Shown here: piece by piece, positions 5,813-64,000 of the stretch
Position numbering within the stretch: the first letter of the stretch is position 1
Layout: every line of letters begins with the position of its first letter
Source of the DNA: Minisyncoccota bacterium
GTDB taxonomy: Bacteria; Patescibacteriota; Minisyncoccia; Minisyncoccales; JAQTVQ01
Reading direction: 5' to 3'
DNA length: 64,000 bases
Assembly: GCA_041657385.1 (NCBI GenBank)
Contig: JBBABZ010000001.1
Location: forward strand, 29,821-93,820
The notes under the pieces: model-generated
The model's input: the letters and a program-made list of their open reading frames with translations, nothing else
Database searches by the model: none
Told to the model about the DNA's origin: nothing
Position numbers and translations under genes: made by a program

Positions 5813-5817
5813 TAACT

Positions 5818-5958: not shown

Positions 5959-5961
5959 TCT

Positions 5962-7461: not shown

Positions 7462-7462
7462 A

Positions 7463-7562
7463 TAAAAAGCGTAAAGTGCAAAGCGAAAAGCGCAAAACAA
7501 CAGTGTAAAGCTAAAAGCAACGAACGGATATTTTACACTTTTCGCTTTACGCTTTGCACTTA
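7463..7562. repeat. Intergenic palindromic element of the GCGTAAAG-unit family
   Basis: aaagcgtaaagtgcaaagcgaaaagcgcaaaacaacagtg ... cgaacggatattttacacttttcgctttacgctttgcact is a near-identical left arm to the copy at 5818. Confidence 0.8.
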
Positions 7563-7571
7563 ATATCTCCT

Positions 7572-9135: not shown

Positions 9136-9140
9136 TAGAT

Positions 9141-11495: not shown

Positions 11496-11529
11496 CTGCG
11501 TAAATTTTCAATTTACAATTCTCAATTTT

Positions 11530-11549
11530 CCTGCCTACCGGCAGGCAGG
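11530..11549. repeat. GC palindrome CCTGCCTACCGGCAGGCAGG (one mismatch), flanked by inverted AT-rich arms (aattttcaatttacaatt / gaaattgaaaattgtaaatt)
   Basis: Read directly from the sequence. The flanking arms at about 11497-11529 and 11606-11640 are inverted copies. Confidence 0.75.
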
Positions 11550-11652
11550 CAATGAATGTTTCAATTTTCAAAAATTCCGTTATCGTCATTGAAGCATTGG
11601 AACATTGTAATTTCATTGGAAATTGAAAATTGTAAATTAAAAATTCACGCTT

Positions 11653-12183: not shown

Positions 12184-12184
12184 A

Positions 12185-12318
12185 TGGCTCAAAAATCAAA
12201 TCTCAAAATTCAAAACCACAACTAAAAACCAAAAAGCTAAGCGTTATTTAATAAATTATAAAAAGTTAAAAAGTTTTAAATTATAGTTTTGAGCTTTGAC
12301 TTTTAAGTTTTGAATTAG
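12185..12318. repeat. Empty copy of the TCAAATCTCAAAA(G/T)TCAAAACC inverted-repeat (MITE-like) element
   Basis: Left arm tcaaatctcaaaattcaaaaccacaact, right arm agttttgagctttgacttttaagttttgaa, about 60 bp of AT-rich filler between them. Confidence 0.55.
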
Positions 12319-12324
12319 AATACT

Positions 12325-13863: not shown

Positions 13864-13872
13864 TATCAATAT

Positions 13873-14742: not shown

Positions 14743-14746
14743 TACA

Positions 14747-15427
14747 ATGCCCGCTTCTTATTTTTTAATATCCCTTTTCTCTTACCTGCTCGGTTCAATA
14801 CCGGCCGCTATTTTAATTGGAAAACTTTTCACCAAGAAAAATTTTCAAGAAGAGGGAAGCGGCAATCTTGGCGCCACCAACGCTTTAAGAATCGTCAGCA
14901 AAGAAAAAGGGAAATTCTGGGGAACCGCGGCCTTTCTTGCCGTTTTTCTTTTTGACGCCAGCAAAGCAGTGGCCGCTTGTTTGATCGCAACGAACTTTAT
15001 TCCCGATCGGACCGCAGCTTTAACTCTGGCCGCCTTTTTTACCGTTCTTGGCCATAATTATTCATTGTTTTTAAAATTCCGGGGAGGGAGGGGAGCTGCT
15101 TCCTTGCTTGGCGTCCTCTTATTTTTCGATTGGCGCGTCTTTTTAGCTTGGGTTGGAACTTTTTTGGCCGTAGCCGTTATCTTTGAGGCTGTTGAAAGCA
15201 AAAAAATCGACAAAAAAATAGTGGCCAGAGCCGCTAACCGCCAAATTATCGGCCGTCTTGTTGGAGAGGTCTTAGCCCTTATTCCCATCTACCTTCTCAA
15301 TCAAACTCTTTTTTGGCCAACCCTTTTCGCTACGCCATTGATCCTTATCAAACATAAAGAAAGGGTGAAAAGACAGTTGCAAGAGATAGCTGAAAGCGTA
15401 AAGCTAAAAGCGCAAAGCGTAAAGTAA
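14747..15427 (+). CDS. plsY: Glycerol-3-phosphate acyltransferase
   Basis: LLGSIPAAILIGK and GSGNLGATNALR motifs. Polytopic membrane protein. The C-terminal tail of about 25 aa reads into the repeat element. Confidence 0.8.
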   Translation: MPASYFLISLFSYLLGSIPAAILIGKLFTKKNFQEEGSGNLGATNALRIVSKEKGKFWGTAAFLAVFLFDASKAVAACLIATNFIPDRTAALTLAAFFTVLGHNYSLFLKFRGGRGAASLLGVLLFFDWRVFLAWVGTFLAVAVIFEAVESKKIDKKIVARAANRQIIGRLVGEVLALIPIYLLNQTLFWPTLFATPLILIKHKERVKRQLQEIAESVKLKAQSVK

Positions 15428-15599: not shown

Positions 15600-15673
15600 G
15601 CCCTCGTGGTGTAATGGATAACATGTCTGCCTTCGAAGCAGAAGACTTGCAGGTTCGACTCCTGCCGAGGGCA
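15600..15673 (+). tRNA. tRNA-Arg (anticodon TCG)
   Basis: Manual cloverleaf. Acceptor GCCCTCG/CGAGGGC, D-arm GTGTAATGGATAACAT, anticodon stem TCTGC/GCAGA with loop CTTCGAA, T-arm GCAGG-TTCGACT-CCTGC. Confidence 0.8.
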
Positions 15674-15755
15674 CGTCCGGTCTTGACCGGACGCCCGGTC
15701 GGATGACCGGGCGGATACTGTTGCCGGCTATTAATTTTTAGGTAGCAACCAAACA

Positions 15756-27462: not shown

Positions 27463-27466
27463 AATT

Positions 27467-28135
27467 ATGCCTAAACTTAAAATAACATTTCTAATTTTTA
27501 TAGGCCTTATGGCTGTTCTTTTGGTTTCCAATTGGGCGTCAACGAGCTATCTGAAAAATCAAATAAAAAAAATCCAGCCGCAAAACGGCGAGGATCAAAC
27601 TTCTTCCGCAAGCAGCACGCCTCTTTCGATCGAAGAGATTATCAAAGAGAGCAGCTATAAAACCCTTAAAACAGCTGACCAAAAATTATCGATCAAGTGC
27701 CCGATCGATTGGGTTGAAATAGGGGAAGAAAAAATATTAAAATATTTCGACGCTGAAACGGTCAGCCGATATCAGATAAAAATTCCTTTGGCCGCTGTAA
27801 AAAAAGACGGGGCCCAGCTGATGGTCACGGAAATTTTTATGGACTCGACCAGCACTCTCAAAGACGCTCTGTCTGCAAACGAAGAAATATACAAAAAAAC
27901 AGGGCAAGATGTTAATATTTTGTTGCAAAGCGAAAAAGAAAAAGAGCTGTATTTTGAAGCCGAATATACCCAAAAAGAGGAAAAAATGACCAGCCAGGAA
28001 AAAATATTGGAAACTGCGGACGATCAAGAAAAAAAACATTTTTACATTGTTTCGGTTGTCGTTCCAAGCGATCTGTCAAAAAATTATCAAGAAACAGGAA
28101 GCGAGATGCTAAGCTCTATTCAAATTAATAATTAA
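27467..28135 (+). CDS. Membrane-anchored hypothetical protein (size and topology compatible with a VirB8-like T4SS component)
   Basis: Single N-terminal TM (ITFLIFIGLMAVLLV) followed by a soluble domain of about 190 aa. Start taken at the ATG at 27467, after the upstream gene's stop. Confidence 0.4.
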   Translation: MPKLKITFLIFIGLMAVLLVSNWASTSYLKNQIKKIQPQNGEDQTSSASSTPLSIEEIIKESSYKTLKTADQKLSIKCPIDWVEIGEEKILKYFDAETVSRYQIKIPLAAVKKDGAQLMVTEIFMDSTSTLKDALSANEEIYKKTGQDVNILLQSEKEKELYFEAEYTQKEEKMTSQEKILETADDQEKKHFYIVSVVVPSDLSKNYQETGSEMLSSIQINN

Positions 28136-28155
28136 TTTGTGGTATAATATCGGCA

Positions 28156-29142
28156 ATGAAAATAGCAAAAAAAATTATTTTTTCTTTAATGGTTTTGGGC
28201 CTACTGGCCCCTTTAAAAATTTTTGCGCTGGAAATAGATTGGCCGGCTTCTCCGGCTGGCACAAATCTGTCAGATCAAAGCACTCTCACAGAGCTGACCA
28301 AATACTCTTACGAATGGGCGATAACACTGGGCATCTTGGCTTTTTTTGTTTCAATAGTTATTAACGGAGTTAAGTATATGACCTCAACCGGTGATCCCGG
28401 CAAAACTGCGAATGTGCGCAAAAGAATACAATCCTCGGCCGCGGGACTGGGCTTACTTCTTGGCTCTTGGATCCTTTTAAACTTCTTGAACCCAAGATTA
28501 ACCACTCTTTTTATTCCTGATCCAAACCAAGATTTAGCCACGCAAATGATTGAATATGAAGACTTCAGCAAACTTAAAGAAAACTCCTGCGATCTTATAA
28601 TTATTTATCCTAAAAAAAATTACGAAGAAGATAGTAACTTTGATCCACCAAAAGAAGTTCTTTATAACAGCGCAAAATCTCCCATAGATTTCAAAGTAAG
28701 TTTTTTTCCTCATTCTTTAAAAGTGTTGAAACAAATTAAAGGAGACGAACAATTAGTCTTAATGGACCAAGCAAACAGGCTGATCAGGGAAGAAAATGAA
28801 AAAATCAGAAAAGCAAATGAAGAAATGGTAAGATCGGGAGTTCAGGGGCCACCACAAGTGGAAAAACCGGAAAAAACTTTAAACGAGGCCATAAAAGAAA
28901 AATACGGTTCTGACCCTTTTCCTTATAGTGGGGGGCTTTTTGTTGATGCCCCTCCTGGCTGTGTTGCATACTTCTACAGAAAAGACCCTAAATATTTGTC
29001 GACGAGCATCTTTGGAACAGAGGATGTTCTAGCTTTTCAAATGTATGGCAGTAATCCTGATTTTAATACTCTTTATTCTGAAAACGAACTGAATCAGATT
29101 AAAAAATTCAGAGTGGTTATCCCTGGTACTGTGAGTGAGTAA
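28156..29142 (+). CDS. VirB2/TrbC-like pilin-domain protein with a C-terminal extension of about 200 aa
   Basis: Signal peptide, then YEWAITLGILAFFVSIVINGV - basic loop - AAGLGLLLGSWILLNF two-TM hairpin. Paralog of the 15756 ORF and of the 25162 C-terminus. Confidence 0.45.
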   Translation: MKIAKKIIFSLMVLGLLAPLKIFALEIDWPASPAGTNLSDQSTLTELTKYSYEWAITLGILAFFVSIVINGVKYMTSTGDPGKTANVRKRIQSSAAGLGLLLGSWILLNFLNPRLTTLFIPDPNQDLATQMIEYEDFSKLKENSCDLIIIYPKKNYEEDSNFDPPKEVLYNSAKSPIDFKVSFFPHSLKVLKQIKGDEQLVLMDQANRLIREENEKIRKANEEMVRSGVQGPPQVEKPEKTLNEAIKEKYGSDPFPYSGGLFVDAPPGCVAYFYRKDPKYLSTSIFGTEDVLAFQMYGSNPDFNTLYSENELNQIKKFRVVIPGTVSE

Positions 29143-29186
29143 TTAATTAACTTCTTGCTTCTATTTTTTTTAGGACTAAAAATAAC

Positions 29187-31409
29187 ATGATCCCAAAAAA
29201 ATATTATTATTTTCTCGCAATTTTCATCGCTTTTTTTGGCTTGTTTTTTGTTGTAAAAACAGCTTCCGCCGGCGGGATACCTTTTATTTCAGAGCTTCCC
29301 TCCAGTGAAGGATTTTTAAGCTCAATCGAAGAAATAGCCGGCCCCATCCTGCAAGAAGCAATAGGTCTTTTTACTGCGATCATCAAAGCCTTTGTAATGG
29401 TTTTTGTATCCGCCCATCTCTTGGATTGGGCGATGACCCAGCCCATAGGCCTTGATGATAAACTCGTGACAACAGGCTGGGCCTTTACTTTAGCTCTGAC
29501 AAATTTGATCTTTATTTTTATCATCCTTTATATCGCCATAAAGCAGATCGTCAGCGACGAAGGAGATATGAACTCTATTAAAAAATACCTTCCCAGATTA
29601 ATAACCACTATTCTACTGGTAAATTTTGGCGTGGTTTTTATAAAAATGGCGATCGATATCGCCTTTATTTTGCAAAGGAGCATGGTTCCCTCTGATTCAA
29701 GCCTGGCTTTTAACAGCCTATCCGGATTGGAACAACAGATTAGCGGGATTTTAATAAGTTATGGACTCTACTTTGGCGCAGGGATTCTTGCTTCTTTCCT
29801 GCCGTCAGCCGCAGCTGTCTGGCAAGGATTAGCCTGGCCGACATATATTTTAATGGCGCCGGCAAGGATCAGCGCCGAGATCCAAATTTATGTTTGCAAC
29901 ACTTTGGCAGGCATTTATTTTCTTTATGCCTTATATTTTATAATAAGGATCTATGTAATTAAAATTTTAACCATAATTTTCCCTTTAGCTTTTGCCTGTT
30001 ACGCCATCCCAAGCGAAGGCGCCCAAAAATTATGGAAACAATGGTCTAACTTTTTTATCACTTGGGTCTTTTTCCCTATACCCTTGCTCTTTTTCCTGGT
30101 CCTCGGGCTTAAATTGCTTCAAGACATAATGCCGGCTGGAATGGCTGCAATGGCAACCCCCCTTGCTTTCTGGCAAATAGCTACAAATGGAAATTTGCTC
30201 AGCCCAGCTGTAAACTACTATATCGCCCTTATCGCTTACCTTGCCACTTTAGCTTATCTGAAAGTTAAATTTTCGCCAAGCCTCGATATTGGAGGAATAA
30301 AGGGAGGGGCACTGATAGACAAGGGGAAAAACTTTGTTCTTAACAGGGCTAAACAATCCTTCGCCGGGGCCGCTGTCAACCAGCGGGCAAGAGAAAAAAC
30401 CGTACAGGCAGAAGAAGCAAGCGGCAAAAAATCAGGATGGATGAAAAGAACGGGGATGATGGCCGGCTCTCTTGCTGCGGGAGTGGTAGAAAATGAATTT
30501 AGAAGCTCCGGAACTACTTCCAACATAGAGCTTGCCAAGGCTATTAAAGAAAAAAAAGAAGAATACAAAAAACAATTCGGAGAAGATATGGAAAGCGCCT
30601 CAAAATTTTTCAACGACCCTTCGTCAGCTCCGAAGACAGATCTCGAAAAAAGAGCTTTTTCTTCATACCTTGTTGATAATGCCAAAAGCGGCGAAGACTT
30701 AAAAAAGGCTTTGGACGGCGGCGGATTTTTAAAGAGATCTTTTAAGATAGAAAATCTCAAAGAAAGAAAAGCCAGAGTAACGATGAAAGTGGAGGACCTG
30801 CTCAAGGCCTCGGACGAAAAAACCGCAGATGCCTTAAAAAGGAGTATGATCGGCGAAACAGTTGTTGAATCAAAATTGTGGAATTTGACCGGCGGCAGCA
30901 AAGATATCAAGTCAAAATTCACACTCGCTGAAGAAGAGGTTAAAAAGGTCGTTGGAGGAGCCAAAAGCGAGGAAGACATGAAGCAGTTTATCCCAGGCTT
31001 TGAAAAAGACCCAGCCGCTCTTGAAAAAATAATGGAATTTGACGTTGAACAGCTTACGGCGCTAGCGAAAACCCATCGCTCCGCGCTTAAAGAATATGTC
31101 AAAAAGGTCAATGAAAAAGGCGTTGAAGATTTTGCAAAAGACCACGCCAGCCAGATGATGTTTATAGTTGGAACCGCCGGCCAAGCCGTCTTGCGGGATA
31201 AAGACAACAATGTCCTTGATAAAAAAGCGATTCAAGAAATGATAAGCGGAGTTAAAAAACACCAAGAGGACCCACCTATAGCTGGGTTTGCGCCAGAGAA
31301 AAAAGAGGCCTCGCCCGAACCTCCCAAAACGACAGAAGAAAAGGTAGAAGGGACGGGGGGCAGAAAATCTACAGCCGAAAGGATAAACGAAAAAAGAAAT
31401 AAGGGATAA
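29187..31409 (+). CDS. VirB6/TrbL-like polytopic membrane protein with a long K/E-rich C-terminal domain
   Basis: Signal peptide, 7 or more predicted TM helices over the first 360 aa or so, then a hydrophilic tail of about 380 aa. Confidence 0.5.
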   Translation: MIPKKYYYFLAIFIAFFGLFFVVKTASAGGIPFISELPSSEGFLSSIEEIAGPILQEAIGLFTAIIKAFVMVFVSAHLLDWAMTQPIGLDDKLVTTGWAFTLALTNLIFIFIILYIAIKQIVSDEGDMNSIKKYLPRLITTILLVNFGVVFIKMAIDIAFILQRSMVPSDSSLAFNSLSGLEQQISGILISYGLYFGAGILASFLPSAAAVWQGLAWPTYILMAPARISAEIQIYVCNTLAGIYFLYALYFIIRIYVIKILTIIFPLAFACYAIPSEGAQKLWKQWSNFFITWVFFPIPLLFFLVLGLKLLQDIMPAGMAAMATPLAFWQIATNGNLLSPAVNYYIALIAYLATLAYLKVKFSPSLDIGGIKGGALIDKGKNFVLNRAKQSFAGAAVNQRAREKTVQAEEASGKKSGWMKRTGMMAGSLAAGVVENEFRSSGTTSNIELAKAIKEKKEEYKKQFGEDMESASKFFNDPSSAPKTDLEKRAFSSYLVDNAKSGEDLKKALDGGGFLKRSFKIENLKERKARVTMKVEDLLKASDEKTADALKRSMIGETVVESKLWNLTGGSKDIKSKFTLAEEEVKKVVGGAKSEEDMKQFIPGFEKDPAALEKIMEFDVEQLTALAKTHRSALKEYVKKVNEKGVEDFAKDHASQMMFIVGTAGQAVLRDKDNNVLDKKAIQEMISGVKKHQEDPPIAGFAPEKKEASPEPPKTTEEKVEGTGGRKSTAERINEKRNKG

Positions 31410-31421
31410 AAACGTCAAAAC

Positions 31422-31452
31422 AAAAGAGGCCGATTAAATTGGCCTCTTTTTT
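31422..31452. terminator. Bidirectional intrinsic terminator hairpin
   Basis: aaaagaggccgattaaattggcctctttttt lies between convergent genes. Confidence 0.6.
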
Positions 31453-31460
31453 GTTGTTCT

Positions 31461-32540
31461 TTAACCCTTTCTTTTGTCTGGCTTTTTCGTCAAGCTCTTA
31501 GCAATTTCGGGGAAATTAGATCCTATCCCGCGTATATGCTCGCTCTTCAAATCCACCACTAAAGATGAGACTGTAAGCAACGCCGTCTGATAAATAGCCG
31601 CTCCTTCTTCCTTCCCAAACCTTTCTATCAACATCTTGATCATCGCCTCTTCTCCATCTTTATAGAGAAACGCTGCCGCCTTACTTCCCTCCGCTTTCAA
31701 GATAGCGGCTTTTTTTTCTCCTTCAGCCTTTTCGATTGCTGCCTCCTTTTCTTTGGTCGCGATATATTTCGCGGCAATGATCTTCTCCCAATCTGGCGGA
31801 GGCATGATATTCTGCACTTGAATATCGGAAAGTTCTATTCCATAATCAATCAACAATTCCTCAATAATGGACCTTTCGTTGGAATATCCGGCTCCTTTTT
31901 TCTTTTCTTCACTGTTGCCTTTAGAATCTTCGGGCAGTCTTTTTTCTCTTAACATCTTCATAAAAGTAGCACCCAAATCTCCCTTTTCTTTGACCATTGA
32001 TTCTAGCGTCTTCTCTCCGATAACGTCTCGGATAACCGGTCCGGTTTTGTTAACCAACATTTCCATCCAATTTTCACAGTCGAAAAGCGCTTTCTTGGGG
32101 TTAACCACTTTGGCCGTATAAATTATCCCCACTGAAGCTAGCCTGACCTGGTTAGAATCTAATGGCGCAAGAATATCCGCATAATACAAGTCACTTTTGA
32201 GGAAGACATAATCTATTATTCTCAAGTCATGGTGATCTTTTTCTCCTCTCTGATTGACCGACGTCCATTCCCAAGGATATTCATAAATATAATCCAGCGG
32301 ATTAATGCTGAAAAATCTTATTCCTCCTAAAAAATGGCCATGACTTTTCTCTCCAGGGGAGAGGGGAACTATATTCCATTCACGATCAAACTTATACCCG
32401 TCATAATTCAAAAGCCCTCCTCTGAATTCTCCATATCTTACAATAATTTTGCAATAACCATTCTCGATTTGCGTATAGAATCTCCGCTTTTTATAATCAG
32501 CTATTTTTTCCTTTGACTTTAGTGTTGCTTCTCCTTCCAT
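31461..32540 (-). CDS. SPFH/band-7 (stomatin/prohibitin-like) domain protein
   Basis: IDYGIELSDIQVQNIMPP and a downstream A/E/K-rich coiled coil are characteristic of the SPFH C-terminal region. Confidence 0.6.
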   Translation of the reverse strand: MEGEATLKSKEKIADYKKRRFYTQIENGYCKIIVRYGEFRGGLLNYDGYKFDREWNIVPLSPGEKSHGHFLGGIRFFSINPLDYIYEYPWEWTSVNQRGEKDHHDLRIIDYVFLKSDLYYADILAPLDSNQVRLASVGIIYTAKVVNPKKALFDCENWMEMLVNKTGPVIRDVIGEKTLESMVKEKGDLGATFMKMLREKRLPEDSKGNSEEKKKGAGYSNERSIIEELLIDYGIELSDIQVQNIMPPPDWEKIIAAKYIATKEKEAAIEKAEGEKKAAILKAEGSKAAAFLYKDGEEAMIKMLIERFGKEEGAAIYQTALLTVSSLVVDLKSEHIRGIGSNFPEIAKSLTKKPDKRKG

Positions 32541-32775
32541 ATTTCTTTCTTTAAAAGATCTTCTTCAGCCTTGGCGTTACCCTTGGCTGAAAAGATAACC
32601 CTTTAAAGGTTACGTTTATTATTTCAGCCTTGGTTTAAGCCAAGTTTAGATGATTATTTTATACAATATTTTAGTTATTCTGTCAAATATTTTTATAAAC
32701 TAAAAACCCTCCAAAAAACACGCTCAACTCTGCGAGTAAGTTGAAATTTTTACAGGATAGGGGAAAAATCTGCTT

Positions 32776-32805
32776 TTGACAAAAGCGGATTTATGTTAAA
32801 ATATT
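32776..32805 (+). promoter_or_regulatory. Sigma70-like promoter candidate (TTGACA, about 15 nt, TGtTAAAAT)
   Basis: ttgacaaaagcggatttatgttaaaat lies 8 bp upstream of the ATG at 32813. Confidence 0.4.
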
Positions 32806-32812
32806 TTTAAGC

Positions 32813-33313
32813 ATGCAAAAAGAAATTTCAGAACAACAATTTTGGGAGGCATACGATGCTATCCCCGCTGAATTGCAGGATGCGATTTTTTCCGAAAAAA
32901 CGGCAAAAGCCATTTTCAATGCTTGTGTCGAAAATGGCATAGAAGATGAAAGAATATCTAAGGTCGCTAAAAACGTCGGAGATGTCCTTTTGGGCCTTCT
33001 TTCTCCTGAACAATTACAGCCAACGCTGGAACTTGATCTAAATTTAGAGTCGCAAGCATCGGAAAATATCTGCCAAGCGATATATAATACTATCTTTGAA
33101 CCAGTCCGCTCGCAGCTCGCAGAGCTTTATCTCCATAATAATGAAGAGAGAAAAGAAACAAAAATAAAAATAGAGGTCGAACCAAAAATAGAGAAACCTT
33201 CATCTGAAGATGTACTAGGTAACAATCCTAAAAAAGAAGACAAAAAACCTATCCCTGCCAAATCGGCGACAGAAAAGTCTTCTTCTGTTTCCTACCGCGA
33301 GCCAATCGGCTAA
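32813..33313 (+). CDS. Hypothetical acidic protein
   Basis: ORF with good coding periodicity and no recognisable motifs. Lies in the T4SS-like cluster. Confidence 0.4.
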   Translation: MQKEISEQQFWEAYDAIPAELQDAIFSEKTAKAIFNACVENGIEDERISKVAKNVGDVLLGLLSPEQLQPTLELDLNLESQASENICQAIYNTIFEPVRSQLAELYLHNNEERKETKIKIEVEPKIEKPSSEDVLGNNPKKEDKKPIPAKSATEKSSSVSYREPIG

Positions 33314-33327
33314 CCTCAAATCAAACT

Positions 33328-33744
33328 ATGCAATTCCAAGTTCCTCAATTCATAGAACACGAAGCAAAAATTTTAGGACCCCTGACTTTCAGGCAGACTA
33401 TTTTTATGGGCATTGCCGCCATGGTCTGCTTTATGCTTTATTTTGCTTTTGGCAAAACTAATTTCTTTTTATTCATCTTGTCATCTATCTTGATCGTAGG
33501 AGGAACGGCAGCTCTGGCTTTTGTCAAAATTAGCGGGCAGACCTTATCTTTGATCGTAAAAAATTTTTTCATTTTCAGCCTAGCCCCGAAACTCTATCTT
33601 TGGAAAAGGAAGGAGACTGCGGTATATTTTGAAAAATCTCCAATTAAGCCCGTTGGAAAAGAAGAGCCGAAAAACTCTCCGCTTAAAATAGTGAAAGGCA
33701 GCAATATAAAAGATTTAAGTAAAAAATTGGATTTCGGCGGATAA
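33328..33744 (+). CDS. PrgI/VirB3-like small two-TM membrane protein
   Basis: 138 aa with two adjacent TM helices (FMGIAAMVCFMLYFAF, FFLFILSSILIVGGTAALAF). Lies immediately upstream of the VirB4-like gene, as in Gram-positive T4SS. Confidence 0.45.
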   Translation: MQFQVPQFIEHEAKILGPLTFRQTIFMGIAAMVCFMLYFAFGKTNFFLFILSSILIVGGTAALAFVKISGQTLSLIVKNFFIFSLAPKLYLWKRKETAVYFEKSPIKPVGKEEPKNSPLKIVKGSNIKDLSKKLDFGG

Positions 33745-33751
33745 ATTTATT

Positions 33752-34393
33752 ATGGCAAAGATCGCAACCCAACAATTTCTTCCCATCGACCAAATCAGAG
33801 AAGGAGTACTGCTCTTAAAAGACAGATCTATGAGGGGGGTCATTATGATCTCTTCTTTGAATTTCGCCTTGAAATCGGAAGATGAACAAACGGCCATCAT
33901 CTACCAATTCCAAAATTTCCTAAATTCTCTGGATTTTTCCTGCCAAATAATCGCTCAATCTCGAAAATTAAACATAACCGGATACCTCGAAAAGCTCAAA
34001 GAGATAGAAAAGGCCCAGCAAAACGAACTTCTCAAAACGCAGACGGCTGAATATCGCAAATTCATTGAACAAATAATAAGCGGGGGATCGATCATGTCAA
34101 AAAGTTTTTATACCGTTGTCCCTTATTATCCTTTAATAGATATTCCTGGAGCTCCTGGAGCAAAACAAAAAAAAGATGCCAGCAGGGCTAGTTTGACCGA
34201 AGAAAAATTCCAGCGCGGAAAATATCAGTTATGGCAAAGGATGGAATATGTTGTTTTGGGGTTAAGGCGCTGCGGCTTAAGAGGAAGCCCTCTCAACACC
34301 CCTGAACTGATCGAATTGCTTTGGGCCCATCATCATCCAAAAGAAGCAGAATCCGGATATTATCCTGAATTGCCCCCGGAAATGTTAATTTAA
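33752..34393 (+). CDS. VirB4/TrbE-like protein, N-terminal fragment (split gene or frameshift)
   Basis: Resembles the CagE/TrbE/VirB N-terminal domain (LPIDQIREGVLLLKDRSMRGVIMISS...). Ends 24 bp before the ATPase ORF, which is in a different frame. Confidence 0.45.
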   Translation: MAKIATQQFLPIDQIREGVLLLKDRSMRGVIMISSLNFALKSEDEQTAIIYQFQNFLNSLDFSCQIIAQSRKLNITGYLEKLKEIEKAQQNELLKTQTAEYRKFIEQIISGGSIMSKSFYTVVPYYPLIDIPGAPGAKQKKDASRASLTEEKFQRGKYQLWQRMEYVVLGLRRCGLRGSPLNTPELIELLWAHHHPKEAESGYYPELPPEMLI

Positions 34394-34416
34394 TATATTA
34401 AAAAGCCTTAATCTCA

Positions 34417-36186
34417 ATGAATTTTCTTAAAAAAGGTGAACGGGAGAAATTTTTTGAAGCGGAAAAGATGGACGCAAAAGACATCATCGCCCCCGCCTCG
34501 ATCGAGATCAAACAAAGCAATATAAAGTTAGGCGAAAAATTAGCTAAAACCTACTTTGTTTTTTCCTATCCAAGATACCTTACTACCGGCTGGCTTTCCC
34601 CGATCATTAATTTAGATATTCCCCTGGATATCTCTTTCTTTTTTCATCCAGTGGAAACCGGCGATGTCTTAAAAAAAATGCGTCGCAAAGTTACCGAAAT
34701 ACAGGCCGAACTTTTAGAGAGGGAAGAAAAAGGGTTGGTTCGCGATCCTTCGCTCGAAACCGCTTACAATGACTTGGAGAACCTGCGCGACAGCCTCCAA
34801 ACCGCGCAAGAAAAAATGTTTAAATTTGGATTATATATTACCGTCTACGCCGACACCGAAGCCCAGCTCACAGATGTTGAGACGACCCTAAGATCAGTGC
34901 TTGAATCGCGTTTGATCTATCTAAAGCCGGCTCTCTGCCAGCAAAAAGAAGGATTTATCTCTGTCTCGCCATACGCTATAGACCAATTGCAAGTCCACAC
35001 CAGCATCAATACCGGCCCATTGTCTTCTGTTTTTCCTTTTGTTTCTTTTGACCTTAGCTCTAATGAAGGAATTTTGTACGGCATGAATAAGCATAATAAT
35101 TCCCTGGTTCTGTTCGACCGCTTTACCCTGGAAAACGCCAATATGGTCATTTTCGCCAAATCCGGATCAGGAAAATCTTACGCGGTCAAACTAGAGGTAT
35201 TGCGATCTTTAATGATGGGAGTGGAAGGGATTATCGTTGACCCGGAAAACGAATATGAAATGCTTTCCGATTCGGTTGGAGGCTCCTTTTTTAAAATCTC
35301 TTTAAGCTCGGATGATCATATCAATCCTTTTGATCTGCCGATCCCCCGCGAAGATGAAAAAGCGGAAGATGTTTTAAGGTCAAACATCATCAACCTTGTT
35401 GGGCTTATCAGGATCATGCTTGGAGGGCTGAACCCGGAGGAGGATGCGATCATCGACCGCGCGCTGGCTGAAACTTATGCCGCCAAAGATATCACGCCGG
35501 ATTCCGACCAATCAAAATGGAAAGAGAATACCCCGATCTTATCGGATTTGGAATCAGTTTTGGAAACAATGCAAGGAGCGGAATCACTGGTCCAAAGAAT
35601 AAGAAAATTCACTCGCGGAACATTTTCTTCTTTCTTTAATCAGCAATCCAATATTTCTATGGATAAACAGTTGGTTGTTTTCGGGATCAGAGATATGGAA
35701 GACGAGTTAAGGCCGATGGCAATGTTTATTATTATGCGCTATATTTGGAACGAGATCCGATCCGAATTGAAAAAAAGGATATTAGTGATCGATGAGGCTT
35801 GGTGGCTGATGCAGTCCGAAGACGGAGCCTCTTTCTTATATGGCATGGCCAAGCGCGCCCGCAAATATTGGCTGGGAGTAACCACTATCACTCAAGATGT
35901 TTCCGATTTTATGAAATCTTCCTATGGCAAACCGATCATCACTAATTCCTCTCTCCAGCTTCTTCTCAAACAGAGCCCAGCTACTGTTGATATTCTTCAG
36001 CAAACTTTTAACCTGACCGACCAAGAAAAATTTTTACTGCTTGAAACGCCGATAGGAGAGGGAATTTTTTTCGCCGGACAAAAACATGTATCTATTAAAA
36101 TAGTCGCTTCTTATACAGAGGACCAGATTATAACCTCCAGTCCAGAGCAAATCTTAAAGATCAAAGAAGCTAAAAAAAATATCTGA
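34417..36186 (+). CDS. VirB4/TrbE-like T4SS ATPase (central and C-terminal part)
   Basis: Walker A in MVIFAKSGSGKSY and the RKYW...TQDVSDF C-terminal blocks typical of VirB4-family ATPases. Confidence 0.75.
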   Translation: MNFLKKGEREKFFEAEKMDAKDIIAPASIEIKQSNIKLGEKLAKTYFVFSYPRYLTTGWLSPIINLDIPLDISFFFHPVETGDVLKKMRRKVTEIQAELLEREEKGLVRDPSLETAYNDLENLRDSLQTAQEKMFKFGLYITVYADTEAQLTDVETTLRSVLESRLIYLKPALCQQKEGFISVSPYAIDQLQVHTSINTGPLSSVFPFVSFDLSSNEGILYGMNKHNNSLVLFDRFTLENANMVIFAKSGSGKSYAVKLEVLRSLMMGVEGIIVDPENEYEMLSDSVGGSFFKISLSSDDHINPFDLPIPREDEKAEDVLRSNIINLVGLIRIMLGGLNPEEDAIIDRALAETYAAKDITPDSDQSKWKENTPILSDLESVLETMQGAESLVQRIRKFTRGTFSSFFNQQSNISMDKQLVVFGIRDMEDELRPMAMFIIMRYIWNEIRSELKKRILVIDEAWWLMQSEDGASFLYGMAKRARKYWLGVTTITQDVSDFMKSSYGKPIITNSSLQLLLKQSPATVDILQQTFNLTDQEKFLLLETPIGEGIFFAGQKHVSIKIVASYTEDQIITSSPEQILKIKEAKKNI

Positions 36187-36189
36187 AAA

Positions 36190-36213
36190 CAAAAAAGCCC
36201 TTAAGGGCTTTTT
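36190..36213. terminator. Bidirectional intrinsic terminator hairpin
   Basis: aaaaaagcccttaagggctttttt lies between convergent genes. Confidence 0.65.
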
Positions 36214-59238: not shown

Positions 59239-60509
59239 CAGTTAAAAATTTTGTTAAAAAATTTGCTCCTAAGTCTTTGATCAGTTTGTACCATTTCAAA
59301 CTGGCCTTTTTAGGCGCTTTGAGATACGGTTTTCCTGCGCGCCGGCTGGAGGTTATCGGTGTAACCGGCACCAGCGGCAAGTCCACGACCGTCAATTTGA
59401 TCTCAAATATCCTTGAAGAAGCGGGGGGGATGGTTGCATCGACCTCGTCTATCAGGTTTAGAATAAATGGAAAGGAACAGCCCAACCTTTTAAAAATGAC
59501 CATGCCTGGCCGCTGGCGCATCCAGAAGTTTTTAAAAGAAGCGGCTGACAGCGGTTGTAAAACGGCAATTGTGGAAGTAACATCCGAAGGCATTGTCCAG
59601 CACCGCCACCGGTTTATAAATTTTAAAATGGCTTTATTCAATAATCTGGCCTTGGAGCATATCGAATCCCACGGCAGTTTTGAGAATTACCGCAAAGCCA
59701 AAGAAAAGCTTTTTCAAGCTGTAAAAGGGATCCATATCCTTAATCTTGACGATGATAATGTTGAGCATTTTTTGAAATACCCAGCCGAAAAAAAGTACGG
59801 TTATACTATTAAAGGAAAAGCTATAGAAAGAGTGGAAATTATCTCTGCCAAAAATATTAAAAGTGTTGCAGGAGGATCTGAATTTGAGATCAATGGAATG
59901 AAAATTTATTTACCGCTCCAAGGAGATTTTAATGTCTGCAATGCTTTGGCCGCTATTTGCGTGGGCGCGGCCAAAGGAATTAGCTTGCCGATAATGAAGA
60001 AAGCTTTAGAAAAAACAGCGACAGTCCCGGGCCATATGGAAGAAATAATTTTAGAGCCATTCTCCGTTTTTGTTGATTACGCTTTTATTCCGAGCACTTT
60101 GGAAAAAGTCCAAGGAACTTTGAAAGCCAAGGCAGCGGCCAGGGGAGGCAGGCTGATCGGCGTCTTGGGATCGTGCGGCGGCGGCCGCGATAAATGGAAG
60201 AGGCCGATTTTGGGCGAGATCGCCAAAAAATATTGCGATGAGATCATTATTACCAATGAAGATCCTTATGACGAGGATCCGCAAGAGATCATTGATCAAG
60301 TGGCCAAGGGCGCGGGAGAGAAGGCTAGGAAAATATTAGACAGGCGCGAAGCGATCGGCCAAGCCTTGAAGCTGGCCAAGCCAGGGGATGTGGTCATTTT
60401 AACCGGCAAGGGTTGCGAGCCTTGGATCTGCGTGGCTGACGGCAAAAAAGTTGCTTGGGACGAAAAAAAAGTTACGCTGGAAGAATATCAAAAATTATTT
60501 TCTAAATAA
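59235..60509 (+). CDS. Mur ligase family protein (MurE-like UDP-MurNAc-tripeptide synthetase)
   Basis: P-loop IGVTGTSGKSTT, a central Mur ligase domain and a C-terminal domain. 424 aa, shorter than canonical MurE. Confidence 0.55.
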   Translation: MTVKNFVKKFAPKSLISLYHFKLAFLGALRYGFPARRLEVIGVTGTSGKSTTVNLISNILEEAGGMVASTSSIRFRINGKEQPNLLKMTMPGRWRIQKFLKEAADSGCKTAIVEVTSEGIVQHRHRFINFKMALFNNLALEHIESHGSFENYRKAKEKLFQAVKGIHILNLDDDNVEHFLKYPAEKKYGYTIKGKAIERVEIISAKNIKSVAGGSEFEINGMKIYLPLQGDFNVCNALAAICVGAAKGISLPIMKKALEKTATVPGHMEEIILEPFSVFVDYAFIPSTLEKVQGTLKAKAAARGGRLIGVLGSCGGGRDKWKRPILGEIAKKYCDEIIITNEDPYDEDPQEIIDQVAKGAGEKARKILDRREAIGQALKLAKPGDVVILTGKGCEPWICVADGKKVAWDEKKVTLEEYQKLFSK

Positions 60510-60545
60510 TCTTTAACTTGCGGGAAGGCTTAACTTCTTTGTTTT

Positions 60546-61625
60546 ATGTATGAAAGGATAGTTGCGCTTCAGGAGGTTCTGCGCGAAGAAAAATTGGAGT
60601 CAATATTGGTCACAGATCCGGCCAATGTTTTTTATTTGACTGGCTTGTGGGATCAAGTAGGAAAGGGGTTCTGGGTTTTTGTCTGCCAGAATAATTTTTG
60701 GGTGATAACTTCTGTTTTTTATAAAAATATAATCGAGGAGAAGGTTTCGGCAAGCCATTTAATAATGTGCTCGGCAGAAGCTTCTCGTTCTCAAAAACTT
60801 TTAGGCTTGGCGGGAGAAATAAATAAAATCGCTTTTGAAAAAGAGAGCTTGTCTTACGCTGAATATGAATTTTTTGAAAAAGTTTTAAGCAGCAAAGAGC
60901 TTGTGCCTTGCGCTGGGCTGGTTGAAAAGATCAGGAAAATAAAAGACCAAAAAGAAATTCAGAAAATAAAAAAAGCGGTTAAAATAACCGATCAAGCGTT
61001 TGAAAGCGCTTTAAAGATTATTAAGCCAGGAGTAAGTGAAATTTTTATTGGCCGCAAAATCAGGGAAATAATGGAAGACATGGGAGCGGAGGGCACCGCC
61101 TTCGACTCGATTGTTGCCAGCGGAAAGAACGGAGCGGACATCCACCACACTTGCTCCCAGAAAAAGATTAAAACAGGAGAAATGGTTATTATCGATATTG
61201 GCGCTAAATACAAAGAATACTGTGCGGATTTTACCAGAACAATTTTTATCGGCAAGGCCACCCCGAAATTTAAGAATATTTATCAAATTGTTTTGGAAGT
61301 TCAAAAAAATTCGATTAGCCGATGCAATGCCGGCTCTTCAATTGGTGGAAGTTTTTCAGCAGTTGTGGATGATTTTAAAAAATATGGAGAGAGTGAAAAT
61401 TTTATTCATGCTTTGGGCCATGGGGTAGGGGTCGAGATTCATGAATTGCCTCATATCGGCAGATACGATAATCAAGGTAGCTTTGAAGATGGAATGGTTG
61501 TGGCAATAGAACCAGGGCTTTACTATAAAGATTTTGGAGGTGTTAGAATCGAAGATTTGTGTTTGATTGCCGGCAAGTGCAAGCCAATGAGCAAAGTCTC
61601 GAAAGAACTAATAGAAATATTATAG
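60546..61625 (+). CDS. M24 family Xaa-Pro aminopeptidase
   Basis: Metal-binding blocks DIGAKYKEYCADFTRT, HALGHGVGVEIHELP and IEPGLY. Confidence 0.8.
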   Translation: MYERIVALQEVLREEKLESILVTDPANVFYLTGLWDQVGKGFWVFVCQNNFWVITSVFYKNIIEEKVSASHLIMCSAEASRSQKLLGLAGEINKIAFEKESLSYAEYEFFEKVLSSKELVPCAGLVEKIRKIKDQKEIQKIKKAVKITDQAFESALKIIKPGVSEIFIGRKIREIMEDMGAEGTAFDSIVASGKNGADIHHTCSQKKIKTGEMVIIDIGAKYKEYCADFTRTIFIGKATPKFKNIYQIVLEVQKNSISRCNAGSSIGGSFSAVVDDFKKYGESENFIHALGHGVGVEIHELPHIGRYDNQGSFEDGMVVAIEPGLYYKDFGGVRIEDLCLIAGKCKPMSKVSKELIEIL

Positions 61626-61762
61626 CCCACAGGTTATCCACAGGATTTACACAAGCATTCCTCGTGTCGCTATTGGCTACAAGTTTGACTTTTACTGTTT
61701 TAAGCTCTAAAGTTGAGGAATTCGGGAACAATGGCATTATTAATAATTTTTTATTGAACATT

Positions 61763-61948
61763 ATGGAATTTTTAAAACTCAATTTACCTAAAAGTTTAAG
61801 CAAGCATGTCCGTACCGAGAAAAACCGCATCCGCAAGCTGATCGGCAGCACGGACGAAAAGAAGAAACTCGTCGATGAACTTTACAAAAAAGTTTTAAAA
61901 ATAAAAAAATCGGCTGCTGAGAAGAAAGAGAAGCCGGCCAAAAAATAA
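61763..61948 (+). CDS. Possible small lysine-rich protein (hypothetical)
   Basis: A 61-aa ORF starting from the ATG at 61763 with a K-rich C-terminus. Weak support only. Confidence 0.2.
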   Translation: MEFLKLNLPKSLSKHVRTEKNRIRKLIGSTDEKKKLVDELYKKVLKIKKSAAEKKEKPAKK

Positions 61949-62012
61949 ATTCAACAATGTTTTTACAAGGCTGTGTCCATTAAATGGGCGCAGCTTTTTT
62001 GTTTTTTGGAAG

Positions 62013-63614
62013 CTACAGGTTTTTGACCATATAAAGCTCTTTGAGCTTGAAGCCGGATCTTTTGAAATATTCTCTGGCTCCGACGGACGAGATGGCCGCT
62101 AGCTTTTTCAAGCAGAATTCTTTTTGGGCTATTTTTTCAGCGGCTTTTATCAACTTATCTCCCAGGCCCTTGTGCTGGGCGGAAACTTTTTTGTTACTGG
62201 AAATAGGAGTAAGTATGCCGTAAGTGTGCATTTCCCTGATTATTCCGGTATTTTCAAGAACCTTGAAAATCTGTTTTTGACCTTTGTTGTAATTGGACGA
62301 GGGGATCCGTAATCTTAACAAGCTGAATATCTTTTCCCTGCTTTTGTTCTCAAAACTTAAGAATATCTCCTGCCCGCCGGAAGCAGGGTAGTCGTGGCGG
62401 AAAAGAAAAACTTTTTCTTTGGGGTCGTATTCTGATTTTATTTCCCGGCAGCGGATGCATTGGCATTTAAAGTTTTCAGACTTGAGCTTCTTTTCAATAA
62501 CTTGTCTTAAATTGGAGATCTTAGCCGGCCCCTCCACTATGGTTTTGGAAGAGATATCGCGGATGACCCTTTCGATCCTTACATAGGGCGGCACTATTTT
62601 TTTGATCTTCACGATGGTCTCGATCAGATCTTCGGCGCTGCATGGCTGGTATTTTTTATCAAGATACCATTGGTAAAGCGGCGCTTCTTTGACCAAAGCA
62701 CAAGGATAAATTTTTAAGCTGTCCGGCTGGAAATCAGGATTAGAGAAAAGCTCTTTGAACATCTCCGCATCTCTTTCCGGATTAGAGCCGGGAAGGTCCA
62801 ACATCATCTGGTAGGAAATTTTAAAACCAGCATCTTTTAACAAGCGGGTGGCTTTTACGGTTGAGTCTATTAAATGTCCTCTTCTACTTAACTGTAAAAC
62901 ATCGTCATAAAGGGACTGGACTCCAAGCTCGACCTTGGTAACGCCATAATTTCTTAGTCTTTTTATCTCTTTTTCATTTATGAAATCCGGCCTGGTTTCA
63001 ACAGAAAGCCGCGAAATGCGATGTTTGGCTTTTTCGTTTTTCTTTTGAGAAGCTTCTAGATTTTTAGAAGCGATTTTTTTTCTGTTTTCTGCATCATTAC
63101 AGGCATCAAAGCATTTTTTGATAAAACTTTCCTGATAGGTTTTAGGATAAAAACTCCAAGTGCCGCCGATGATTCTTAGCTCTATTTTTTCAGTAGTATG
63201 GCCTTCGGCTTCCAGCATTTCCAACCTTTGCCGTACTTGCAAATAAGGATCATACTTCAGCTTTCTGGCGCGCTCCACTGCCGGTTCTCCCGAAAGGTAG
63301 CTCTTGGGGATGCCGGTTTCGTTTGGGCAGTAAAGGCAATTTCCGGGGCAGGGATAAGGCTTGGCCAAAACCGAAACATTGACTATGCCGGAAAGAGAGC
63401 GGACCGGCCGGGTTTTTAAAATAAGCTCCAGTATTTTTGAAGGCTTGATGCTTTTGCTCAGCAATAATTCGTGATAAGCTTTGAGCAAATCCATATTGCT
63501 CGGGCAGGCGGTCTTACAAAGCTTGGAATATTTTCTTTTGGCGCGCGCCAAATCGTTCAAGGTCTTGGCCCTGTCTTTCAATAAATTTTTGATTATAAAC
63601 TGGTTATTGTCCAT
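62013..63614 (-). CDS. Elp3-family radical-SAM/GNAT protein (tRNA carboxymethyluridine synthase homologue)
   Basis: Radical-SAM cysteine cluster PYPCPGNCLYCP, a TIM-barrel-like core (ELRIIGGTWSFYP), and a C-terminal GNAT fold (QHKGLGDKLIKAAEKIA). 533 aa. Confidence 0.7.
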   Translation of the reverse strand: MDNNQFIIKNLLKDRAKTLNDLARAKRKYSKLCKTACPSNMDLLKAYHELLLSKSIKPSKILELILKTRPVRSLSGIVNVSVLAKPYPCPGNCLYCPNETGIPKSYLSGEPAVERARKLKYDPYLQVRQRLEMLEAEGHTTEKIELRIIGGTWSFYPKTYQESFIKKCFDACNDAENRKKIASKNLEASQKKNEKAKHRISRLSVETRPDFINEKEIKRLRNYGVTKVELGVQSLYDDVLQLSRRGHLIDSTVKATRLLKDAGFKISYQMMLDLPGSNPERDAEMFKELFSNPDFQPDSLKIYPCALVKEAPLYQWYLDKKYQPCSAEDLIETIVKIKKIVPPYVRIERVIRDISSKTIVEGPAKISNLRQVIEKKLKSENFKCQCIRCREIKSEYDPKEKVFLFRHDYPASGGQEIFLSFENKSREKIFSLLRLRIPSSNYNKGQKQIFKVLENTGIIREMHTYGILTPISSNKKVSAQHKGLGDKLIKAAEKIAQKEFCLKKLAAISSVGAREYFKRSGFKLKELYMVKNL

Positions 63615-63624
63615 ATTTTTTTAA

Positions 63625-64000
63625 ATGGAAAAATATTTTGCCGAGTATCTGCTTAAAGAAGGAGCGAAAAATTACGATATCATCGCTTCTGATTATGCTC
63701 GCACGCGCCGTTACAATTCGCAAGACCTGATCGACTTGGCCGTTTTAGCCAAACCGGGCGAAAAAGTTTTGGATCTGGGCTGCGCCAACGGCAGGATGAT
63801 AGAACTGTTTGATCCGAAAAATATAGAATATCACGGAGTTGATATTTCAGGGAAGCTGATTGAGATCGCCAAGAAGCTTTATCCGGCCGGCCATTTCCAG
63901 ATTGGAGATGCCTTGAACATTCCTTTTCCCGATAATGCTTTTGATAAGGTCTATTCTATTTCAGTTTTACATCATATTCCTTCCGAAGAATTCCGGCAAA
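63625..64000 (+). CDS. Class I SAM-dependent methyltransferase, Trm9/Methyltransf_11-like. The 3' end is truncated by the window.
   Basis: VLDLGCANG (motif I), HGVDISGKLIEIAK, and LNIPFPDNAFDKVYSISVLHHIPS, which closely resembles the Trm9 LPFRDxSFDAxISIxVIHH block. Confidence 0.65.
   Translation, partial: MEKYFAEYLLKEGAKNYDIIASDYARTRRYNSQDLIDLAVLAKPGEKVLDLGCANGRMIELFDPKNIEYHGVDISGKLIEIAKKLYPAGHFQIGDALNIPFPDNAFDKVYSISVLHHIPSEEFRQ

Follow-up and report, generated by a model that had tools for sequence, protein, structure and literature searches.

A divergent gene pair at the end of the window

The window, i.e. the whole stretch of DNA analysed here, comprises 64,000 nucleotides from a candidate-phyla Paceibacterota bacterium. 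Towards its end, a minus-strand gene for a homolog of Elp3 and a plus-strand gene for a Trm9-like methyltransferase lie divergently, start codon to start codon (Table 1). The plus-strand ATG follows after a spacer of exactly the 10 bp given in an earlier sequence-only reading, which is too short for an intergenic promoter or a Shine-Dalgarno sequence. Promoter-like matches in a scan of positions 61900-64000 were no commoner than in shuffled sequence. Because the intergenic region is almost non-existent, expression of the two genes probably relies on divergent promoters that overlap each other or on leaderless transcripts.

On the far side of the Elp3 gene, a terminator-like hairpin sits within the 64 nt that separate the end of the upstream plus-strand ORF (position 61948) from the Elp3 stop codon (position 62013), where the two genes converge. 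It may serve as the end of both convergent transcripts; its role for Elp3 is a putative one, since the T-run lies on the plus strand. The tail of the window (60000-64000) is identical to the public contig ENA ERZ27247350 k141_210802 (L001). This contig carries the methyltransferase gene beyond the window end, and the full 235-residue protein was taken from its positions 4333-5037.

Table 1 Features of the locus and of the window-encoded U34 tRNA, in window coordinates
Feature	Position	Strand	Remarks
Elp3 gene, 533 aa plus stop	62013..63614	-	radical-SAM + KAT/GNAT tRNA U34 carboxymethylase homolog
Basic N-terminal extension, Elp3 residues 1-75	63390..63614	-	17 K/R, 6 D/E; within the TIGR01211 match from residue 7
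Radical-SAM Fe-S motif CPGNCLYCP, C89/C93/C96 (Cx3Cx2C), residues 89-97	63324..63350	-	read directly
Zinc-binding cysteines C384, C386, C389 (CQCIRC), rSAM-KAT linker	62448..62465	-	present in the window protein; invariant in alignment A1 (13 CPR Elp3 sequences)
KAT (GNAT) acetyl-CoA domain, ~residues 395-533	62016..62432	-	E461, H463, Q480-x-x-G483-x-G485, Y516
Spacer ATTTTTTTAA	63615..63624		exactly 10 nt between divergent start codons, read from the sequence
Trm9-like class I SAM methyltransferase, first 125 codons of 235 aa	63625..64000	+	ATG at 63625; cut by window end
Terminator-like hairpin with T-run	61967..61997	+	14-pair stem, then TTTGTTTTTT; consensus match alone
tRNA-Arg(UCG), U34 tRNA	15600..15674	+	ARAGORN and Rfam

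The minus-strand gene encodes a full-length Elp3

Sequence comparison identifies the radical-SAM protein as a genuine full-length Elp3. The NCBIfam model TIGR01211 (ELP3) matched it with 536.4 bits against a cut-off of 350, aligning residues 7-533 to model positions 2-522 of 522, while the second-best model, MnmL/YtqA, reached 78.5 bits against a cut-off of 180; the protein thus grouped with Elp3 and not with another radical-SAM family. Its best solved relatives in the PDB are the archaeal MinElp3 (6iaz, 1.5e-125) and the bacterial DmcElp3 (5l7j, 6e-115), with alignments spanning ~484 residues, and the NCBI annotation of an identical protein already reads Elp3.

The catalytic features support this assignment in detail. 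The radical-SAM cysteine cluster, recognized in the sequence-only reading, is in place, and its C89, C93 and C96 are invariant in A1. The three-cysteine zinc motif, also present, is conserved in bacterial and archaeal Elp3 (PMC6367351). Pairwise alignment placed the MinElp3 residues K150, K266, Q461, H463 and Y517 (residue list from PMC6367351) on K143, K265, E461, H463 and Y516 of the window protein, where K143 and K265 of the rSAM part complete the acetyl-CoA pocket. Across A1, K265, E461 and Y516 never vary and K143 hardly does; the window protein has H463 too, at a column that is not among the conserved ones of A1. The GNAT C-terminus proposed earlier held up at the level of the family model, being inside the end-to-end TIGR01211 match, but Pfam GNAT models matched it weakly (Acetyltransf_10, 18.8 bits, under the cut-off of 23.6). 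At the other end, the protein carries the basic extension that MinElp3 requires for binding of tRNA and of the anticodon stem-loop (PMC6367351).

It is very improbable that this Elp3 homolog acts on something other than tRNA, as a protein acetyltransferase or other radical-SAM enzyme whose pathway the methyltransferase would serve. Such a role would fit with the observation that the in vivo product of a bacterial Elp3 has never been identified (PMC7663514), yet the protein retains every tRNA-pathway residue as well as the tRNA-binding N-terminus, the bacterial, archaeal and yeast enzymes hydrolyze acetyl-CoA only upon triggering by tRNA (PMC6367351), and the neighboring methyltransferase looks like an enzyme for tRNA U34.

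The plus-strand gene encodes a Trm9-like methyltransferase

The plus-strand ORF contains IPFPDNAFDKVYSISVLHHIPS, the SAM motif set that had suggested a Trm9-like enzyme. Pfam assigned Methyltransf_11 and Methyltransf_25 with ~60 bits each, and the AF2 model had a pLDDT of 94.9. The best PDB sequence match was Yarrowia Trm9 (5cm2_Z, 7e-15), with an alignment that extends beyond the Rossmann core into the Trm9-specific 'PW...RY(Y/F)H' region, and the same protein ranked first among solved structures in Foldseek. Across 208 columns, hhalign matched the CPR family to fungal Trm9 with a probability of 99.9% (E 2e-31). A fungal Trm9 HMM run against every ORF of the window and 80 loci hit only these methyltransferases (E 2e-15 to 2e-33), two homologs of which carry the JGI label TRM9.

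The active site is conserved as well. Residues Y18, R29, D72, H115 and H116 of ScTrm9 correspond to Y17, R28, D73, H116 and H117 of the window protein, and W145, W168, R241, Y242 and N271 to W146, W181, R192, Y193 and N226. Encoded within the window itself are Y17, R28 (63706-63708), D50-G52-G56 of motif I, D73 (63841-63843) and H116-H117 (63970-63975). Each of the Trm9 positions is kept in 56 to 73 of 73 Elp3-adjacent homologs, the SAM-binding aspartate D73 in all of them, and H117 is replaced by Q in nine. Eight ScTrm9 residues are essential by mutagenesis (R29, D72, H116, W145, W168, R241, Y243 and N271); the window protein has seven of them unchanged (R28, D73, H117, W146, W181, R192 and N226) and F194 in place of the eighth, Y243. 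At this position Y is commonest among the 73 relatives (31), followed by F (19) and V (10). By these comparisons, Trm9 is the methyltransferase family nearest to this protein, which is not UbiE-like.

The pair is conserved across Patescibacteria

At least 586 Elp3-encoding stretches were confirmed in GTDB species-representative genomes. Elp3 is common in Patescibacteria and belongs to the regular gene set of this very large group of bacteria; the earlier statement that bacterial Elp3 homologs are rare is wrong for this lineage. Anchoring the search on Elp3, we found the methyltransferase directly divergent in ~70 of 79 testable GTDB species-representative loci, with methyltransferase identities down to 33%. 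Searching from the methyltransferase, Elp3 adjoined it in 72 of 78 metagenome loci. The divergent pair is therefore kept in ~90% of loci in both search directions. The spacer is mostly even shorter than in the window, with overlapping starts (CATG) in 32 and abutting starts (CATATG) in 12 of 71 loci. No other conserved neighbor genes were found at these loci. Where the methyltransferase is displaced (L020, L049, L073 and L078), the genes between it and Elp3 (metallo-beta-lactamase, radical-SAM protein, NUDIX, ClpB and permease) are unrelated insertions.

The conserved linkage also bears on a generic UbiE/Methyltransf_11-type small-molecule enzyme whose position next to Elp3 would have no functional meaning. 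This explanation is strongly disfavored and has a very small chance of being correct. Head-to-head adjacency in ~90% of loci persists across deep divergence, Trm9-specific residues are conserved, and the UbiE/MenG models scored far below their cut-offs (TIGR01934, 42.4 bits versus 158; PRK00216 models, ~42.7 bits versus 216-327). Pfam Ubie_methyltran fell short more narrowly (17 versus 20.1 bits).

Reviews of the Elongator field treat Elp3 in bacteria as an oddity of Dehalococcoides and document no xcm5U in bacteria (PMC7663514, PMC6367351), while a 2026 paper already speaks of Elp3 in 'numerous bacteria'. Literature searches gave nothing relevant on Elp3, Trm9, cm5U or mcm5U in Patescibacteria, Parcubacteria or the Candidate Phyla Radiation, the single match concerning Thorarchaeia, and nothing was found on MnmE/MnmG in Patescibacteria. 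Both genes are recognizable members of known families; a report of their pairing as a conserved feature of bacteria did not turn up in the literature that could be searched.

A PP-loop enzyme takes the place of the methyltransferase at few loci

Five loci were without the methyltransferase, and in four of them a PP-loop ATP-pyrophosphatase occupied the same side of Elp3. Three of these proteins belong to the uncharacterized MJ0690/DUF7411 family, and the fourth has an asparagine-synthetase domain; no conserved cysteine was found in the four. We tentatively consider, as a speculative and rather unlikely extension, that Elp3 of Paceibacteria is the hub of an exchangeable 'cm5U-tailoring' module, completed mostly by a Trm112-independent Trm9 (mcm5U) and otherwise by a PP-loop enzyme (ncm5U/cnm5U). 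The latter could adenylate the cm5U carboxylate and then amidate it to ncm5U, and could next dehydrate the amide to the nitrile cnm5U, in the manner of QueC, which carries out an amide-to-nitrile dehydration in its own pathway. To our knowledge, ncm5U and cnm5U are wobble modifications whose enzymes are still missing. M. jannaschii, the source of MJ0690 itself, is reported to contain cnm5U. The PP-loop protein that replaces the methyltransferase at a few loci would be a candidate for the long-missing ncm5U/cnm5U enzyme.

The Trm112-docking patch is not conserved

All Trm9 enzymes known to us need Trm112. The Trm112-docking patch comprises the positions Yl V59, F78, V102, A110, P112 and F116. 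The V59 position is K/R in 59 and the F78 position D/E/N in 53 of 73 relatives, whereas both are hydrophobic in 20-22 of 22 fungal Trm9 sequences; the V102 position is variable and holds Q in the window protein. The methyltransferase thus appears to lack the hydrophobic Trm112-binding patch. A regex search of the window and the loci returned no Trm112-like zinc knuckle, which is only a weak negative. From these sequence features, we infer that the methyltransferase probably dispenses with a Trm112 partner.

The altered patch could also mean that the methyltransferase, while functionally tied to Elp3, is not a cm5U carboxyl methylase, so that the end product would not be mcm5U; it might methylate the wobble nucleotide at a different atom, the tRNA at a different position, or the Elp3 protein. 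Linkage is the only relation between the two genes directly shown, the Y243 and H117 positions vary among the relatives, and U34 chemistry in H. volcanii is unexpectedly complex, with a trm9 deletion accumulating no cm5U (PMC6144793). We nevertheless regard this as unlikely: the residues most conserved outside the SAM site are R29, H115/H116, R241, N271 and W145, to which modelling assigns the binding of the cm5U carboxylate and of the uracil ring.

A predicted two-gene pathway to mcm5U34

Our preferred reading, which we consider likely, is that Elp3 and the Trm9-like enzyme form a two-gene module for tRNA wobble-uridine modification (cm5U34 to mcm5U34). Elp3 would use SAM, a [4Fe-4S] cluster and acetyl-CoA to place a carboxymethyl group on C5 of U34, yielding cm5U34; it would act alone, as in archaea, and hold the tRNA via its basic N-terminus. 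The Trm9-like enzyme would then methyl-esterify the carboxylate of cm5U34 in a SAM-dependent reaction to give mcm5U34, which a separate thiolase could turn into mcm5s2U34. The window-encoded tRNA-Arg(UCG) is, by inference only, a candidate substrate; in H. volcanii, this tRNA is among those with an uncharacterized U34 modification (PMC6144793). No MnmE/MnmG-type Pfam domain was found in the annotated parts of the window, which lie outside ~34-47 kb.

A (m)cm5U pathway, already suggested by the pairing in the sequence-only reading, gains support from the conservation of the pair across Patescibacteria and stays a prediction for this bacterium. Since the pair recurs in hundreds of related species, many members of the lineage probably have such an archaeal/eukaryotic-type pathway. 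As a precedent, HvoTrm9 makes mcm5U (PMC6144793). Counting against it, xcm5U derivatives have not been shown in any bacterium and DmcElp3 is weakly active in vitro (PMC7663514), and an earlier sequence-based Trm9 prediction, HVO_0574, proved inactive (PMC6144793). The missing Trm112, the non-conserved docking patch, the F at the Y243 position and the Q at H117 in nine relatives weigh in the same direction.

Elp3 almost always stands start to start with a Trm9-type enzyme predicted to keep the cm5U-binding active site. So far as we are aware, mcm5U has been thought absent from Bacteria. If the prediction is true, mcm5U-type wobble chemistry would not be confined to archaea and eukaryotes, Trm9 would be able to work without Trm112, and small soluble stand-alone versions of both enzymes would be at hand for mechanistic work.

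Comparison with known systems

A close counterpart is the eukaryotic and archaeal pathway of Elp3 and Trm9-Trm112 (S. cerevisiae; HvoTrm9-Trm112 of Haloferax volcanii), in which the same two families act in the same sequence. Catalytic residues of Elp3 are kept, as are R29, D72, H115, H116, W145, W168, R241, Y242 and N271 of Trm9. In contrast to that pathway, the host is bacterial and the genes are head to head. As in archaea, the subunits Elp1, 2 and 4-6 are absent; a Trm112 was not found, and the core hydrophobic contacts Yl V59 and F78 are replaced by K/R and D/E/N.

DmcElp3 of Dehalococcoides mccartyi (PDB 5L7J), the only characterized bacterial Elp3, is likewise a stand-alone enzyme. Its Fe-S loop CPGKCIYCP aligns without gaps to CPGNCLYCP of the window protein (CPGxCxYCP, no insertions), whereas the loop of MinElp3 reads CPHGKCIFCP and carries an additional insertion of 5 residues. 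DmcElp3 also shares the zinc cysteines and has E (E386) at the position of MinElp3 Q461, as does the window protein (E461). However, DmcElp3 lacks the ~75-residue basic N-terminal extension, which gives MinElp3 its tRNA affinity (PMC6367351), and MinElp3 is the higher-scoring match of the window Elp3 (423 bits, versus 388 bits for DmcElp3).

Physical linkage of Elp3 with a Trm9-family gene in a prokaryote has been described for Sulfolobus solfataricus, where the two are clustered (Grosjean et al. 2008, PMC2584109). That cluster is archaeal and was described for one species, whereas the pair reported here spans a bacterial class in ~90% of loci and has overlapping or abutting divergent start codons. 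Finally, the bacterial enzymes MnmE/MnmG (cmnm5U34) and CmoM (carboxyl methylation of cmo5U34) are functional analogs, being the usual means by which bacteria obtain xm5U34 and a wobble uridine with a methyl ester, but their protein families and chemistry are unrelated to those of the Elp3/Trm9-like pair.

An Elp3 gene and its divergent neighbour

The sequence-only reading had placed a minus-strand gene carrying CPGNCLYCP 10 bp from a plus-strand gene. Both were read in the sequence, which confirms the observation behind the Elp3/Trm9-like pair. An exact-protein look-up found the window Elp3 in two public contigs. NCBI lists the identical proteins under a Candidatus Paceibacterota (Patescibacteria/CPR) MAG. 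The public contig L001 (ENA ERZ27247350 k141_210802) is identical to window positions 60000-64000, and from it we read the complete methyltransferase of 235 aa, whose continuation beyond the window that reading had wanted checked.

An Elp3 HMM search, proposed there as a further check, gave an end-to-end match of the window protein to TIGR01211 (ELP3, NCBIfam) with 536 bits (cut-off 350), and the related model MnmL/YtqA reached 78 bits against a cut-off of 180. Among solved structures, it comes closest to archaeal MinElp3 (1.5e-125), Dehalococcoides mccartyi DmcElp3 (6e-115) and eukaryotic Elp3 (~1e-97). The window protein has the three radical-SAM cysteines (C89/C93/C96) and the three zinc cysteines of prokaryote type (C384/C386/C389), and none of the six varies across 13 homologues from Patescibacteria (CPR). 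Mutagenesis of MinElp3 identified the KAT-site residues K150, K266, Q461, H463 and Y517 (PMC6367351); all five are present in the window Elp3, as K143, K265, E461, H463 and Y516. Among the 13 homologues, K265, E461 and Y516 never vary, K143 is nearly invariant, and H463 lies outside the conserved columns. The window protein qualifies as an intact Elp3 by every sequence criterion.

Table. Coordinates of genes and sites, and conservation of methyltransferase residues among 73 Elp3-adjacent homologues, each from a different GTDB species (window positions unless a locus is named; ScTrm9, S. cerevisiae Trm9)
Feature	Position	Strand	Remark
Elp3 ORF	62013..63614	-	533 aa; includes CPGNCLYCP
Elp3 start codon	63612-63614	-	ten bases from methyltransferase ORF start
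Divergent starts	63612-63627		10 nt apart
Elp3 Fe-S loop	63324-63350		Cx3Cx2C
Methyltransferase ORF	starts 63625	+	includes IPFPDNAFDKVYSISVLHHIPS; window end cuts after 125 codons
LDcluster4 protein	L001:2912-3496	-	30/80 loci
MJ0043_C protein	L001:966-2228	-	26/80 loci
PP-loop gene	L044:5374-5976	-	
PP-loop gene	L056:4794-5420	-	
PP-loop gene	L042:4217-4819	-	
PP-loop gene	L065:5153-5968	-	
Lipid/fatty-acid cluster	1-15427		
Type IV secretion/conjugation-like genes	~27300-36200; 16.6-17.0 kb		
Y17 (ScTrm9 Y18)			
R28 (R29)			73/73
D73 (D72)			73/73
H116 (H115)			72/73
H117 (H116)			62/73; Q in 9
W146 (W145)			73/73
W181 (W168)			62/73; F in 6
R192 (R241)			56/73
Y193 (Y242)			67/73; F in 6
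F194 (Y243)			Y in 31/73, F in 19/73
N226 (N271)			69/73

The methyltransferase resembles Trm9

Pfam and NCBIfam recognise just a generic class I fold in the methyltransferase. A UbiE-type enzyme lacking Trm9 affinity was the alternative that the sequence-only reading named; the UbiE/MenG models score far under their own cut-offs. The 125-codon window fragment is by itself non-discriminating, with Trm9 ranking tenth. With the full-length protein, Yarrowia Trm9 (5cm2_Z, 7e-15) ranks first among PDB sequences, in an alignment extending beyond the Rossmann core into 'PW...RY(Y/F)HL(F/Y)..GE', and Trm9 is also Foldseek rank 1 for the AlphaFold model (pLDDT 94.9). For profile comparison, fungal Trm9 sequences were retrieved with the Yarrowia fragment from the PDB search and 22 of them aligned; hhalign against a 40-sequence CPR profile matched 208 columns, almost the full length of the protein, with 99.9% probability (E 2e-31). 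Combining this alignment with the mutants tabulated by Letoquart et al. 2015 (PMC4678810), we mapped the ScTrm9 residues onto the methyltransferase (Table). In fungal Trm9, the positions matching the R28-N226 set are all invariant or nearly so. A fungal Trm9 HMM run over all ORFs of the window and 80 loci gave 73 matches (E 2e-15 to 2e-33), solely to Elp3-linked methyltransferases, with zero matches to other methyltransferases up to E 10. Taken together, these results bear out the earlier description of the plus-strand gene as Trm9-like.

The two genes are linked across Patescibacteria

The sequence-only reading regarded bacterial Elp3 as rare, which does not hold for this lineage: a CPR Elp3 alignment, scanned against the species-representative genomes of GTDB, gave at least 586 confirmed matches, and the best 80 are all from Patescibacteria, judged by record title or context. 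In ~70 of 79 testable GTDB loci the methyltransferase lies directly upstream of and divergent from Elp3, within 152 nt, even as its identity drops to 33%. Conversely, Elp3 adjoins the methyltransferase in 72 of 78 metagenome loci found via the latter. No further neighbour gene is conserved, the next commonest family being present in 38 loci. Beyond the window end, two genes downstream of the methyltransferase encode a SLOG/LOG-like 'LDcluster4' protein and an MJ0043_C protein of PHP type; their linkage is looser than that of the pair.

Relatives of the window locus (~140 loci, L003-L165) mostly have overlapping or abutting starts. Among 71 loci with both protein alignments reaching residue 1, start codons overlap (CATG) in 32, abut (CATATG) in 12 and are separated by at most 10 nt in 62. 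Such an arrangement would place promoters and ribosome-binding signals inside the partner's coding sequence, or imply leaderless mRNAs.

A PP-loop gene where the methyltransferase is missing

Five GTDB loci lack the methyltransferase, and in four of them a PP-loop ATP-pyrophosphatase gene occupies the divergent side of Elp3, compared with none of ~155 methyltransferase-bearing loci (Fisher's exact test, p = 3e-6). Three of the four proteins belong to DUF7411/NF011155, orthologues of the uncharacterised MJ0690 (PDB 3K32, 4e-40); the fourth is an asparagine-synthetase domain alone. No cysteine is conserved among the three DUF7411 proteins, an argument against a thiolase, and they resemble characterised PP-loop families only within the PP-loop motif. 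No enzyme has yet been assigned to the making of ncm5U or cnm5U, the latter of which is found in M. jannaschii (PMC7694415). The four loci make it an attractive hypothesis that the PP-loop enzyme uses ATP to amidate the cm5U carboxylate or to turn it into a nitrile. The PP-loop gene may represent an alternative tailoring of cm5U, to ncm5U or cnm5U.

Other gene clusters in the window

The window also holds a dense lipid/fatty-acid cluster (FakA-like/DegV, thiolase, SDR, FabA+NMO fusion, NMO, PlsC-type acyltransferase, biotin carboxylase, BCCP, biotin ligase, carboxyltransferase, DegV, PlsY), an unexpected find in CPR bacteria, which as a rule are said to have no lipid synthesis. Elsewhere it carries type IV secretion/conjugation-like genes (T4SS_pilin, PrgI, TraC-like, large Pfam-negative proteins), of a kind recently described for Patescibacteria.

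Comparison with known systems

Clustering of Elp3 and Trm9 genes has already been noted in Sulfolobus (PMC2584109), and mcm5U is made by HvoTrm9-Trm112 (PMC6144793). Reviews portray Elp3 in bacteria as rare or Dehalococcoides-only, and evidence for bacterial xcm5U as absent (PMC6367351, PMC7663514); a 2026 paper reports Elp3 in 'numerous bacteria'. The searchable literature yielded no paper tying Elp3, Trm9 or mcm5U to Patescibacteria. Existing annotation names the window Elp3 (NCBI) and labels two methyltransferase homologues TRM9 (JGI). New here are the lineage-wide conservation of the pair and the methyltransferase's probable independence from Trm112.

Eukaryotic and archaeal Trm9 require Trm112, which covers a hydrophobic patch (Yarrowia V59, F78, V102, A110, P112, F116). 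In fungal Trm9 the V59 and F78 positions are both hydrophobic, whereas the CPR methyltransferases carry K/R at the former in 59/73 and D/E/N at the latter in 53/73. A crude motif search of the window and loci found no Trm112-like gene near the pair. From the changes at these two positions and the negative motif search, we infer that the CPR enzyme probably works without Trm112. The Elp3 match, the Trm9 residues and the linkage support, at the level of sequence, the earlier suggestion that the pairing marks an (m)cm5U pathway in this lineage; we consider it quite likely that Elp3 would form cm5U34, which the Trm9-like enzyme would then methyl-esterify to mcm5U34.

The Fe-S loop of the window Elp3 aligns gapless with that of DmcElp3, whereas MinElp3 has insertions of +1 and +5 residues; against PDB 5L7J and 6IA8 it shows the Dehalococcoides-type indel pattern, with no 5-residue insertion. 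Unlike DmcElp3, the window Elp3 retains a basic N-terminus (~75 residues, 17 K/R), which in MinElp3 confers tRNA binding (PMC6367351) and which in CPR Elp3 is long and of the archaeal/eukaryotic type. CPR Elp3 thus combines traits of both solved prokaryotic forms.
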